From: Eledone cirrhosa
Taxonomy: Eukaryota
Reading direction: 5' to 3'
Assembly (NCBI GenBank): GCA_964016885.1
Contig: OZ024746.1
Coordinates: 95,046,001-95,110,000 of the forward strand
DNA: 64,000 bases
The notes beneath the pieces are model-generated. The model was not told the DNA's origin and made no database searches. It saw only the letters and a list, made by a program, of their open reading frames with translations. How positions within the stretch are numbered: position 1 is the first letter of the stretch; each line of letters starts with the position of its first letter. Positions 5,861-55,148 of this stretch are shown here, piece by piece. Both the position numbers and the translations under genes were made by a program.

Positions 5861-6180
5861 ATGGATATGTAGACAATGAATGTATGGTAGGCGTTTTTGT
5901 TTGTTTGATTATTTGGAGGTGTGAGCGAATGTATATATGTTTTTCTATATGAGATATCGAGTGGCAGTAACTGTATATGATGGATAGATGCACAATGGGT
6001 GTGTATCCGTTTACCTAGTTTATATATATATATATATTTTTTTTTATTTATTTATTTATTTATTTATTTATTTATTTATATATATATATATATATATATA
6101 TATATATATAATCAAGGTTTAGCAAATAGCGAAAAAGTTTTAAAATAAATTTTTAAAACTTTACTGTACCTACTATATTT

Positions 6181-6264
6181 ACCCTTACCGCGCGGTTTCA
6201 AGTCTCAAAATAAATGGATAATCCATGCGGAAATACATTGAGAAGAAGACTTTCGTCAGAGGGT
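6181..6264 (-). ncRNA. Type I hammerhead ribozyme motif (intact core)
   Basis: Minus strand reads ACCCT-CTGACGA-AAGTCT...AGACTT-GAA-ACCGCGCGGT-A-AGGGT. Stem I ACCCT/AGGGT, stem II AAGTCT/AGACTT, palindromic stem III, GUA triplet. Lies in a ~265-bp insert between (TA)n tracts. Confidence 0.85.
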
Positions 6265-6810
6265 TCTTCTCACTCGGAGAATATAAAATTCCCGAGTTCA
6301 AAACACGGTCTGGCGCCATACAGAACTGTTCCCGGATGATAGTGTATGATGAAGAAACAATCCTATCTAGTGCCGTATATATATATATATATATATATAT
6401 ATATATATATATATATATATATATATATATATCAAAGGTATATATTGAGTTAGAAACTCAAAATAGTCTCTTACAATAAAATAGCTCTAAGAAAGAGATT
6501 CTCCCGAGCCGTATACAGGAATTGGTATTTCTATTCACAATTAATATTGCGAAACAGCACCAAAAGCTGTCTGGGTGATTGGTAGTTACCACAATTCCAG
6601 TTTGTATTTATTTTCTTGATTTTTTTCTTAAATTGAGACAGGCAAACCCTATTGTCTATAGCTAGTATTCTTTTCACCTTAGCGAATCTGGTCCCTTGCG
6701 ATTTGAACACATATATGTATATGTCTGTGTTCATTTTTCTTTTATATTCAATTATAATATATATATATATATATATATATATATATATATATATATATAT
6801 ATGTATATAT

Positions 6811-6995
6811 GAAAAAGTATGACCCTGACGGCAGAGCTCAAGCCGTTTCGACGGCTATTTCAGTCCAGAAATAGCCGTTGAAACTACATGAGCTCTGCCG
6901 TCGTACTTTTTTCCTATTACCCACTCTACTACCCTAAGTATTCAGTACTCTGGTGCGTTATGGTCCATCTGGTTCCTTAACACAACTCCTTCGTT
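6811..6995. mobile_element. Fold-back palindromic element in TA tract (hammerhead-3'-half family, copy 1)
   Basis: Imperfect ~100-bp palindrome 6811-6913 plus a tail shared with 23817-24012 and 49040-49222. Confidence 0.75.
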
Positions 6996-7186
6996 ATATA
7001 TATATATATATATATATATATATAAACAAATAGTTTTATCGCTCTACATGGATGAATACAAGAAATTTAAATTTGAGTTTTTCGAATAATAACATTTGTG
7101 TCGTTTTCAATTATGCAAACAGCCTCTTAAGCCATGTCAGTAGAATGACCTCGTTATTCTTGCTCTTATGTTGGCATACAAACAGA

Positions 7187-7233
7187 ACGGTAGACACTAA
7201 TGTTTCTGGGTGATTACCCTTCATCAGAACCGT
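7187..7233 (-). ncRNA. Type I hammerhead ribozyme motif
   Basis: Minus strand reads ACGGTT-CTGATGA-A-GGGT-AATC-ACCC-A-GAA-ACA-TTAG-TGT-C-TACCGT. All three stems pair (first stem I pair is U-U); GUC triplet. Confidence 0.8.
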
Positions 7234-7810
7234 ATACCGTTTACCTGCCAACTGTCAGAGCTAGTGAAAATATATGATATTTTCTGGAATATACACTGGG
7301 TTTGCTAACGTGCAGATCTGACAGAGAGAGAGAAAGTGTGTGTGTGTGTTTCGACAGAGCTAGCTGGCAACAGACATGACTCCCTGTGAAATTTGGTAGC
7401 CTCGGCCTCTGAGCTACTTCTGACCTAACACTGCTGGTCTACCTATCTTCAATCACCTCCAATCGCACCCTCATACATACATATATACATACATACATGA
7501 TGGCTGTCCCCTCGTTATCGAGTATGGCCACTGCCGTCGAGGTCATACTTTTTCCTATATATATATATATATATATGCATATACATATGTGTGTGCGTGC
7601 ATCTGTGTACGTGTATGTAAGTATATATATATATGTATTTATGTATGTATATTGTACGCGTGTGTATGCCAGTTGCCATGGTCACAGTAATTAGGTGTGT
7701 GAATGATTACGAACACGAATATAAAAACCTTTAAGTAATGAAAGAGATACGAAACTAATGACTATGCTACGGTTATAACACGGTTTAAGCATCATTGTAA
7801 ATGTTTTTAA

Positions 7811-8017
7811 CCCTTTAGCATTCACATTACTCTATATATACTATTATATTTTCATGGTAAAGGCTTTACCTCGCATAATATCGAATCTATGAGATTTTGA
7901 AAGTATTTATTTTGAGAACAATACCTTAACATCAGTTTGAGCGACCAGTTACAGCCAGTTTCAACAGAAAGAGGTAGAGAATTCTGGCCGGTTTTGGCCG
8001 GTTTCAACATTAAAGGG
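7811..8017. mobile_element. piggyBac-type MITE
   Basis: TTAA|CCCTTTA...TAAAGGG|TTAA termini. Confidence 0.65.
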
Positions 8018-52262: not shown

Positions 52263-53290
52263 TAATCCACCACCAAAATAATAGAACAGAAATGAAAAAA
52301 TAATGTAGCAACTTTCTGCCGATTATTGTGTTTAAGAAGGTCAGAGCGACATAAATTGCCATGTATATGTGGCTGAGCAGTAATCAATTGAAAGTCGTCG
52401 CAGCGTTGTTTTGTTGTTATGTAGGAGTAAGTGAATGAATGACTAAGCTTATATTGAACGTTGGGTATTGATAACAGATGTGCTATCATCTATATCTTAG
52501 AGAGATTAGTTCTGTCGTAAGTGAGAAGCATGATGCTGTGTGATTAAAAGAGCACATTGCACCTCCACCCAGCCTCTCCCTCACGCACACTCTCTCTCAC
52601 ACACGCACACTCTCTCTCTCACACACACACACACACAGGCTCAAACACACATACATACACACGCTCAAACACACATACACACACATATATAAGCGGTAAC
52701 TAAACTACTTTATTTAAACAATATGATTGTCAGCTAATGTCTGCTCCTTAACGAAGGATTAAATAAATTGGGTGTTGTAGGAAACGACATTCCTGCTTTA
52801 GATAACAATAACAGCAACAACAACAACAAAATACAACAGCAACAACAACATGCAACAACAACTATAACAACAACGAATACAACAAAAATTATGGAAAGAA
52901 AGACTAAAATAATCTTTGATGAATTGTTGTTGTCGTCTGGAAATTCGAAATGTAAATTAAAAACTAATAATAATAAAGAAAGCAATTGTCTATTGAGTGA
53001 ATTATGATCATCGTCTGTTAATTTTAAATAAAGCCGTGAAGTCTGGTGGCAGTAATTTAGTGGAATACGAGAACTATCTAAAACAAATCAAACAATTGTA
53101 ATTTGTTCTTTCTTTTTTTTTTCTTTATTTCTGTCTAGAAACTTAAAAGCTTTACAGAATCATTGTTTCGTAAAGTGAATTTCTAGAACTGAAAAAACAA
53201 CAAAACAAAAGGTAAGGATATTTATTATTATCTAAAAAATTGAATAAATTGAGGAGTTTCAATTATTGTCTGAAAAAGGAATAAAATAAT

Positions 53291-53473
53291 TGTTTCTACT
53301 TTTGGCACAAGGCCAGCAATTATCCAGTGCATTACTGGTACTTTATTTTATCGACCCCGTAAGGATGAAAGGCAAAGTTAACCTCGGCGGGATTTGAACT
53401 CAAACCATAAAGGGGCGTAACTCTTTGCTGCAAAGCATGGCGTCAGACCCTCTACCGATACTGCCAATCCACC
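53291..53473 (-). mobile_element. Main-family SINE with ~19-bp TSD
   Basis: GAAAAAGGAATAAAATAAT on both sides. Confidence 0.9.
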
Positions 53474-54129
53474 GAAAAAGGAATAAAATAATCAAATCAA
53501 ATCTAATCTGGCCGAGTTTACACTCGCAAATAAGAAAAACCAGGGCCGCCCCTAGGAGCATTGGATTTGGTGTACTTCATATTTGTTTCGGTTGCTGAAT
53601 ACAATCAGGGGTCACTGCTTCTCCTGAAGGTCAATAGTTCTCTTCTAACTTGAGCGGGAGTGCATTTCCATTGTCAATTTGCATTGATCATCTGCAAAGC
53701 CGCATTGTTCTCAGAACCACTATACCAATCTTTCGATGCAGTTGGAACTACTGCCACCCATTGATTTGGCATGATTTTTTTTTTTTTTTAGATGGTTATT
53801 GACTCTTATGAGTTCTTCCGCCCTTTGTCAAGTTTTGTTTTTTGTCCTGCAGAGTTTCCAAAATCACCCTCCTCACCAAGTAAACTTGGTGGGGTTGCTG
53901 GTTTAGTCACCAACGACCCGACCATGCGACAGATTGTACTGGGTTACATGCTACCAGTAGCACTCGAGAGTGACCTGACATAAAACAGCTGCTTGCTATT
54001 CTAAAACCGAGATGGCCAACTAAATATGAACCTATGATTTTTTTTCTCCCCAATTTTTCTTATTATTTTTTCCCCGTGCCTTCCTCTTGTCGTTCTTTGC
54101 TTTCTATTTATCTTCTATTTCTAGCTCTA

Positions 54130-54165
54130 TCTTCTGATGAAGGACTAGTGTCCGAAACGTTAAGA
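54130..54165 (+). ncRNA. Minimal type I hammerhead ribozyme (tandem copy 1)
   Basis: TCTT-CTGATGA-A-GGAC-TAGT-GTCC-GAA-ACGT-T-AAGA. Confidence 0.8.
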
Positions 54166-54417
54166 CTATCTTCCGGCTATTTCAAGCGTTAAACTGTGTA
54201 CTGTGCCGTTTGTTTTGTTATTTTTGTTATTACTTTTACACACACATACGTGTGCGTATTTGTTTGTGTATATATATAATATATATATATATATATATAT
54301 ATATATATATAAGATGTTCGACTGAATACGCACGTGTGGTTTTTTTTGTTCTCATTTTCCCCTCTTCCTTCCTCTTATCGCTCTTTACTTTCTATTTATC
54401 TTCTATTTCTAACTCTA

Positions 54418-54453
54418 TCTTCTGATGAAGGATTAGTGTCCGAAATGTTAAGA
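54418..54453 (+). ncRNA. Minimal type I hammerhead ribozyme (tandem copy 2)
   Basis: TCTT-CTGATGA-A-GGAT-TAGT-GTCC-GAA-ATGT-T-AAGA, 288 bp downstream of copy 1. Confidence 0.7.
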
Positions 54454-55148
54454 CTCTCTTCCTGCTATTTCAAGCGTTAAACTAATATATTTCTTCCATG
54501 TACTGTGCCGTTTTCTTTGTTATTGTTATTTCCGTTTACCTTTTACATATATATATATTTATTCACACTAGTTTCCTCATCGTTGTTATTACAGTCACAA
54601 TCTTTCCACCATTGGGCCCTCCATTTTTATTCAGGTGCCAGTCGTCGTAATAGGTAATGTTCTCGTAATTTCAAAGCGAACCTTTTAATTCAAACCACGT
54701 GGTACATCGTTCCTACGTTGTCCATCACTGAAATATTCTCTTATAAGTTACATTTGGATACTCAAGAGATGTAATGGGATCTCAGACAGGCTAGCAAGGA
54801 ATGTAGGCTTTCTATGTGGTTGATGTAAAGGAACAATAAGGAGCAAGGGCTCACAGGAAACAAGGCCCTTTAAATGTCCAGAAGGTTCCTTAAAAGTAGT
54901 CAATAGCCTCTGTCTCTCTCGCTCTCCCCTTCTTTCAATATTATAAGCAAATGGGGGTTCACGCGCTGACCGCACTGCGGCCCCGACGGTCAGAATAGAG
55001 AAGGTATTTCCCCAGGATAATAGATAATGGAACAATACTGAAGGATGATAAGATCACAAAAAGATTAGGTTTAAACTTTTAATTCCCACCGTTGACGCTG
55101 CGGCCGACTAGTTCAGAAGTTTGCTTCACAATAATTAGGTCCCATATA

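Follow-up and report, generated by a model that had tools for sequence, protein, structure and literature searches.

Penelope-like elements (PLEs) carry hammerhead ribozymes with a minimal type I fold that cut poorly as single copies (PMC4209133), and dimer-cleaving PLE hammerheads were the subject of Lunse et al. 2017, as cited in PMC6765202. PLEs of the Hydra clade show inverted copies and one-sided tails (PMC8557442). The protein of Poseidon, a PLE of the green anole, cleaves both strands of AT-rich DNA, has two internal RNA sites from which it starts reverse transcription, and is predicted to be a dimer; the Poseidon hammerhead is protein-assisted and dispensable for insertion in vitro (PMC11167929, Frangieh et al. 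2024). Non-coding retrozymes that lack long terminal repeats (non-LTR retrozymes), for which an origin from PLEs has been proposed (bioRxiv 10.64898/2026.07.22.740005), reach up to 120,000 copies in the axolotl (PMC7229834). The accessible parts of these two retrozyme papers hold no mention of octopus that we could find, and a 2026 repeat annotation of Octopus vulgaris lists 31 recently active Penelope-like families, with the word ‘ribozyme’ absent from its main text (PMC13282606). Here we analyse 64 kb (the window) of the 3.0-Gb assembly of Eledone cirrhosa (contig OZ024746.1, positions 95,046,001 to 95,110,000). The hammerhead motifs of the window are very probably type I folds borne by the terminal repeats of PLEs and by non-coding tandem elements that likely derive from PLEs, and they lie beside (TA)n tracts because these elements likely insert there.

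Hammerhead folds exceed chance

The window has a GC content of 36% and is packed with microsatellites. It was scanned with a type I descriptor comprising the core CUGANGA / GAAA / UH and three stems, in which stem III is a hairpin or a palindrome and an extra base or mismatch is tolerated at positions 10.1/11.1. In its strict form the descriptor finds five sites (6181, 7187, 8639 and 49467 on the minus strand and 54130 on the plus strand), compared with 0.023 per window in 300 block-wise local dinucleotide shuffles. Allowing a U3-A8 core adds 34599 on the plus strand, giving six sites against 0.045 in 200 shuffles. As the descriptor was relaxed after the sites had been seen, an independent test matters; the same form, run on the shuffles and on a 400-kb sample from other contigs (40 pieces of 10 kb, placed at round coordinates), finds 22 hammerheads in that sample against 0.57 in shuffled sequence. 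An initial annotation, made from the letters of the window, had read these motifs as real, and this is borne out by shuffled controls in which they are far rarer (0.023–0.045 per window).

Individual sites fared unevenly. Among eight sites described as intact, 6181, 7187, 8639, 49469 and 54130 pass, and 14124, 49521 and 54418 fall short. Of three sites called degenerate, 34599 proved complete (core UUGAUAA), whereas 21855 indeed lacks stem I and 35002 has the core CUGAUGU. Five sites (14124, 21855, 35002, 49521 and 54418) thus give no full descriptor pass, and the six passes count U3-A8 and a mismatch at 10.1/11.1 as allowed. The half-motifs noted at 6551, 6820, 23900 and 49040 are 3′ halves as described, but they derive from whole family ribozymes that were cut by 5′ inversion. 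In an Rfam search, proposed as a check, no hammerhead family appears among the best 150 of 469 matches for the window, all of which are crowded by microsatellite matches, and a general repeat search was swamped in the same way.

The density in the 400-kb sample is approximately 55 per Mb, with a Poisson interval of 34–83 that is too narrow because inverted pairs are counted twice. Extrapolation from this sample gives 1–2.5 × 10^5 hammerheads genome-wide, and more than 100,000 ribozyme-shaped ends are likely across the genome. The window itself, with 6 hammerheads where the sample predicts 3.5 (P = 0.15), is typical of the genome and not special in hammerhead density, so the ‘dense constellation’ first ascribed to it is not a property of this locus. 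The reported association with (TA)n holds: 6/6 window and 21/22 sampled hammerheads have a (TA)6 run no more than 250 nt downstream, and 20–24% of background positions have a TA run within 300 nt.

Ribozyme cores and stems

Approximately 25 clusters with unrelated stems keep the catalytic core in 1.18 Mb of sequence, the choice of which was partly biased. This supports directly the diversity of unrelated families in the initial annotation, and its link to PLEs is likewise supported by the coding frames described below. Several observations are possible traces of selection acting on the fold. Between family A (families are lettered here) and a 77%-identical sister, we read by eye four compensatory changes spread over all three stems. 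Position N7 takes all four bases among 2,259 pattern matches of family F, in which the other core positions are fixed by the pattern. U3-A8 and U10.1-U11.1 recur in unrelated families; at 10.1/11.1, 5 of 18 multi-copy clusters have G-C and 4 have U-U. U3-A8 and U10.1-U11.1 are known natural variants, and U-U is the best tolerated mismatch (PMC3088659). We considered and dropped the idea that either is a new core, because both have already been reported (PMC3088659, PMC4209133). In families A, B, G and H, stem III attains stability only when two molecules form a duplex, as in published dimer-type motifs. Self-cutting of RNA by these motifs is predicted.

Protein-coding families

Reverse-transcriptase/GIY-YIG reading frames adjoin the repeats of families F, C, I, K and G without a break. 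Judged by their motifs and not by a tree, the first four families are ends of protein-coding PLEs of Hydra type, and G is the end of a Neptune-type PLE. All of the features of PLE insertion (5′ truncation, an inverted copy, a tail at one end and a hammerhead in a terminal repeat) are present in F and C; truncation and the motif are present in G, I and K.

Family F is represented by 62,788 exact genome-wide matches to a 26-base pattern of its ribozyme 3′ half (0 in a reversed control). Longer copies hold the full ribozyme, CCCC-UUGANAA-stem II-GAAA-6 bp stem III-GUC-GGGG, again with 0 matches in the reversed control against the 2,259 exact pattern matches; in 1 of 2 copies tried it folds as a minimum-energy three-way junction. 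Approximately 1.2 kb upstream of the ribozyme, the frame shows DKT, YRDD, CxCX5C, YIG, CxxC and CxH, with RWR in place of RWK. The window contains three head-to-head insertions of F, each with ribozyme 3′ halves: 6811..6995 (plus strand, two halves, one arm tailed), 23815..24011 (minus strand, a diverged subfamily) and 49040..49242 (plus strand, with arms ending at +15 and +101 nt relative to GUC). That F might be a ribozyme-less, self-regenerating palindromic element was an earlier idea, which had rested on the absence of a CUGANGA partner in 30 loci; it was ruled out by unpaired copies with the full ribozyme (UUGANAA) and the coding frame.

Family C (14,855 exact matches) has a tail that enters a Hydra-like frame in 3/30 loci, showing DKT and RWR. 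In the window, a terminal repeat at 8550..9070 (minus strand) includes a hammerhead at 8689..8639 with U10.1-U11.1, and a head-to-head insertion occupies 49386..49590 (minus strand). The direct arm of the latter carries the hammerhead 49521..49467 and a long tail; its inverted arm (49521–49586, plus strand) has a short tail, and stem I is broken at the junction. In the tails of both C and F (8550–8630 and 49150–49240), a brief motif, ACTCT..TA.GTATTGAGTAC, occurs about equally far from the cut site and is a candidate protein-binding site.

Families I and K sit downstream of similar frames, with CxCX5C, CxxC and CxH in I, and DKT and CxCX5C in K. The 3′ untranslated end of I lies at 34950..35650 (minus strand), with a hammerhead-like motif at about 35105..35002; the core CUGAUGU recurs in 10 of 12 family copies. 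Family K, at 205..318 (plus strand), lies outside the range of the initial annotation and was missed by it; its motif (251..301) has the core CAGAAGA. K is a high-copy family, with 7 clusters in the 400-kb sample, in which this U4A core is kept together with intact stems. We did not find a U4A core among published hammerhead variants, as far as the accessible texts list them.

Family G is represented in the window by a decayed 3′ end at 21640..23060 (minus strand), with a frameshifted GIY-YIG remnant at about 22350–23060 and a ribozyme-like motif at about 21890..21850. The core UUGAUAA of this motif is kept in 17 of 19 copies shown, and stem I is absent. Relatives of G match Pfam GIY-YIG (E 3e-7) and, at a score that does not reach the curated threshold, RVT_1 (E 3e-5), and have a CX4CxxC linker.

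Non-coding tandem families

Four families consist of head-to-tail tandem units without a long frame: A (463–492 nt), J (~510 nt), B (372–429 nt) and H (591 nt). By their short non-coding tandem unit with one type I hammerhead each, these are classed as non-LTR retrozymes. The small non-coding ribozyme elements of the initial annotation correspond to A, B, H and J but not to about half of the families, F, C, G, I and K, which are 5′-truncated ends of protein-coding PLEs.

In family H, as many as 5 units follow one another head to tail within an arm; A, B and J show direct repeats of 1.x units. The H units are mostly 99–100% identical (~99.5%), have 2,954 exact matches and contain no ATG frame longer than 75 codons. 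The window holds 1.08 units at 34289..34925 (plus strand), the youngest family there, with a complete U3-A8 hammerhead at 34599..34686 and a predicted cut after 34681. A search of sequencing runs for H listed no RNA run that contains it. Contigs from four sequencing runs of unrecorded kind contain family H, and in two of these the 591-nt head-to-tail joint is visible; this has no bearing on expression. Between 73% and 84% of family H words are present in runs labelled as three organisms; H may be common to close species, or samples may have been relabelled.

The window copy of family A (6111..6375, minus strand) is a 5′-truncated copy of a ~485-nt unit with TA runs on both sides; its hammerhead, 6264..6181, has a palindromic stem III and a predicted cut after 6186. 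Family J, at 6433..6752 (plus strand), has an inverted tail (6433–6515) joined to a direct arm that begins inside loop II, leaving the ribozyme 3′ half only; this window copy is cut in loop II, but the whole ribozyme is found in 7/15 loci. Family B, at 7025..7320 (minus strand), is a unit of ~370–430 nt with a hammerhead at 7233..7187 that has an A-A mismatch at 10.1/11.1.

PLE protein matches occur near 6/59 A, 1/19 B, 2/49 H and 2/14 J loci and in 5/40 regions of the random sample (which are longer); near these four families they are not above the random-sample frequency and have no fixed position. Family E showed neither a tandem repeat nor a PLE protein match in 19–20 loci. It is an old (81–85% identical) short element, present on the plus strand at 54010..54240, with a minimal hammerhead at 54130..54165 that has an extra A after A9 and an ACGT stem III, and again at 54312..54545, where the motif (54418..54453) carries a C15.2 to U change in stem III. 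Copy numbers of the families are given as exact matches; the ‘candidates’ returned by the search served as seeds and not as copy counts (for family A, 1,401 candidates against 42 exact 26-base matches).

The motif at 14124..14175 (plus strand) stands apart as a single copy with stem I, the core and an AGCT stem III, and no stem II. It matches only itself in the genome and has no TA run within 2.1 kb downstream, and every family except this one has many copies elsewhere. A motif with a comparable stem I arose in 2/400 shuffles (threshold set post hoc). It is more likely a decayed relic than a chance match, though one without family support.

Insertion anatomy

Downstream of the ribozyme, copies terminate at one of two fixed sites, where they abut TA runs. 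Counted from the cut site, these lie at +20 and +101 nt in F, at about +22 and +91 to +99 nt in C, at +80 and +245 nt in H, and at +189 and +290 nt in J. The two arms of head-to-head insertions end at different fixed sites in 61/67 cases: 13/13 in H (5/5 and 8/8), 12/13 in C, and 27/31 short and 9/10 long insertions in F. The four remaining short F insertions are unclassified, and none has one site used twice. Family A is less clean, with arm ends that differ in 3/4 insertions. The ends of insertions overlap the target by 1–7 bases of TA-like sequence.

On their other side, 34/42 arms of F stop 30–44 nt upstream of the cut site, on the 3′ side of loop II, in loci that were not chosen for F. 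Arm breaks in family C form a weaker cluster around the 5′ end of stem I, and those of family H form none. We rejected a break ~40 nt upstream of the cut site as common to all families, since it is pronounced in F, partial in C and missing from H. The F arm stops leave tens of thousands of near-perfect 60-bp hairpins (for example, at 6811, 23815 and 49040), which would give double-stranded RNA if transcribed.

Different families adjoin end to end in shared TA tracts (A, J, F and B at 6111–7320; H and I at 34289–35650), as would be expected if each insertion renews the target.

Proposed mechanism and alternatives

The one-site-per-arm rule is likely to be a record of twin priming. A PLE enzyme, probably a dimer, would nick both strands of a TA tract and prime reverse transcription of an RNA, uncut or circular, at two internal sites, one per nicked strand; joining of the two complementary DNAs (cDNAs) at their far ends would yield an inverted insertion whose tail is confined to one side. 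As most copies are short and the ribozyme lies just upstream of the start sites, the ribozyme would be the part most often deposited. Non-coding units would borrow the PLE enzyme, and we infer from the shared insertion anatomy that they are moved by it. By analogy with published work, ribozymes with a palindromic stem III may act as dimers when transcribed in tandem, cutting the RNA and perhaps yielding circles, and most single genomic copies would be inert. A more far-reaching combination is possible, and we put it forward tentatively: that this is among the densest hammerhead populations described (~10^5 copies in dozens of families, largely driven by Hydra-clade PLEs), that its insertions record priming of both strands by a dimer with the folded or dimerised ribozyme as a scaffold and, in loop II of F, as a barrier to cDNA synthesis, and that H is a still-active circular-RNA retrozyme with a U3-A8 core.

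Several observations weigh against the PLE-ribozyme interpretation. Eight of ten window motifs give no hammerhead when folded alone as one strand, which is expected of dimer-type motifs but does not count as support. Formal evidence of covariation within families is weak, with a single two-sided pair change in an out-of-window family (1/500 shuffles) and another in family C (18/500), and the aligned rows are related. Non-canonical features are common to the copies of whole families (no stem I in G, A9U in I, U4A in K), so some of them spread with ribozymes that may be dead. A Pfam search did not recognise the Hydra-type proteins of F, C, I and K, and no coding partner was found for A, B, E, H or J in fetched loci that span only ~1.5 kb on each side.

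The hammerheads of PLE-derived elements could be mostly vestigial, or could serve as protein-binding or priming structures and not as RNA cutters. G, I and K, which spread despite broken cores or a missing stem I, fit this, as does the intact cleavage site in every copy, which means that the site was reverse-transcribed across; ribozyme mutants of the anole PLE also insert in vitro (PMC11167929). Against it stand the ~25 unrelated stem sets that retain the catalytic core, stem changes that are compensatory and core changes that are of tolerated types (U3-A8, free N7, U-U at 10.1/11.1), and we hold this reading to be a minority possibility. The head-to-head structures, in turn, could come from self-priming or fold-back of one cDNA or antisense template instead of two primed cDNAs. 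Self-priming has been proposed for rotifer Penelope elements (PMC3846280), and the F junctions lie in an AT-rich loop with short self-complementary words, at 23 different centres in 30 copies; but the use of the other fixed site by the second arm in 61/67 insertions, and the fact that either arm can be the longer, are not easily accounted for by fold-back alone, and we hold it to be rather improbable beside twin priming.

The window might be a special ribozyme cluster with a local, possibly regulatory role, such as the cutting of host pre-mRNA that the initial annotation had raised. It does hold six complete and approximately ten partial folds in 64 kb, on both strands, and its TA runs number 30.8 per 10 kb over the scan, against 17.8 in the sample. 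However, the density is that of the genome at large, all families except 14124 are multi-copy elsewhere and a Pfam search of 118 window frames turned up no recognisable host exon, only weak DDE_3 and zf-CCCH matches; a local role is very improbable. As for chance matches in AT-rich repeat DNA, the heptamer CTGANGA alone is not enriched (27 in the window, 23.8 ± 5.0 in shuffles) and 14124 may be such a match, but the counts of the full descriptor in the window and in the 400-kb sample refute chance for every other site, and as a general explanation its probability is close to nil.

Other features of the window

A frame with three C2H2 zinc fingers (Pfam) at 16520–17026 (minus strand), following an RTE-like tail, is probably the remnant of a long interspersed nuclear element. 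Two related decayed frames at 12205–12685 and 28712–29176 (plus strand; YRGLS.RFL.AP...ETSGVLGP), on which Pfam is silent, likely represent, by resemblance, the endonuclease end of a non-LTR retrotransposon. Tandem arrays of an abundant repeat resembling short interspersed nuclear elements, which is found throughout the window, occupy 24863–25472 (period 204) and 51664–52213 (period 222), and a long low-complexity array with a 104-nt period lies at 30703–32660. A long low-complexity TGT/TGG-rich array at 36087–37618 has on its minus strand a 541-codon open frame rich in Thr and Pro.

Comparison with known systems

The motifs and the PLE and retrozyme anatomy match published biology, and the class of object is already known. 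As in the PLE hammerheads of Cervera and de la Peña 2014 (PMC4209133), the ribozymes are of type I with a palindromic stem III and fall into many unrelated families per genome; they occur mostly as single truncated copies, with opposite-strand pairs 100–700 bp apart, and both the U3-A8 variant and the extra base after A9 (here in family E) are found there. The numbers reported in that work are thousands per genome (~4,000 in coelacanth and 9,000 in Xenopus), in contrast to our estimate of 1–2.5 × 10^5, which was obtained with another descriptor, and the pair G10.1-C11.1, conserved there, is a minority form here. Hammerheads on an estimated scale of 10^5 would be present in a lineage for which we found no ribozyme report; our search for reports of octopus hammerheads or of PLE twin priming had partial coverage that excluded supplements, which may list cephalopod motifs.

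Families A, B, H and J resemble the non-LTR retrozymes of mussel, coral and axolotl (PMC7229834; bioRxiv 10.64898/2026.07.22.740005) in their non-coding tandem units, one type I hammerhead each, low GC content and coexistence with PLEs. H (591 nt) and J (~510 nt) are longer than the 150–450 bp of those described, the core of H is U3-A8 and, unlike the described retrozymes, the arrays are inverted in the manner of PLEs and have two-site ends. Cleavage and circular RNA have been demonstrated for the mussel, coral and axolotl elements; those of Eledone are described here from sequence. Near-identical, tandem and non-coding with a complete ribozyme, family H is a ready construct for assays of cleavage, circular RNA and trans-mobilisation.

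Among coding elements, G resembles PLEs of the Neptune clade (motif definitions in PMC8557442) in its reverse transcriptase and GIY-YIG domains, CX4CxxC linker and microsatellite targets, and differs in that the 3′ copies examined have a ribozyme without stem I. Families F, C, I and K share with the Hydra clade (Craig et al. 2021, PMC8557442) a C-terminal GIY-YIG, the CxCX5C linker, DKT, CxxC and CxH, hammerheads and insertion at (TA)n. The clade as described there is a small, mostly cnidarian set of families with RWK, in contrast to the RWR of F and C and to the copy number that F alone attains.

The insertions are most like those of green anole Poseidon (PMC11167929), in which two internal start sites likewise give rise to a tail and targets are AT-rich. 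The one-site-per-arm rule was not found reported for Poseidon in the accessible part of that work; the tails here are 70–165 nt in length, compared with 30–40 nt in Poseidon, and, unlike in Poseidon, the ends overlap the TA target by a few bases. Near-strict as it is, the two-site arm rule allows genomic data to test how the inversions and tails of PLEs arise, a question that PMC8557442 describes as open.

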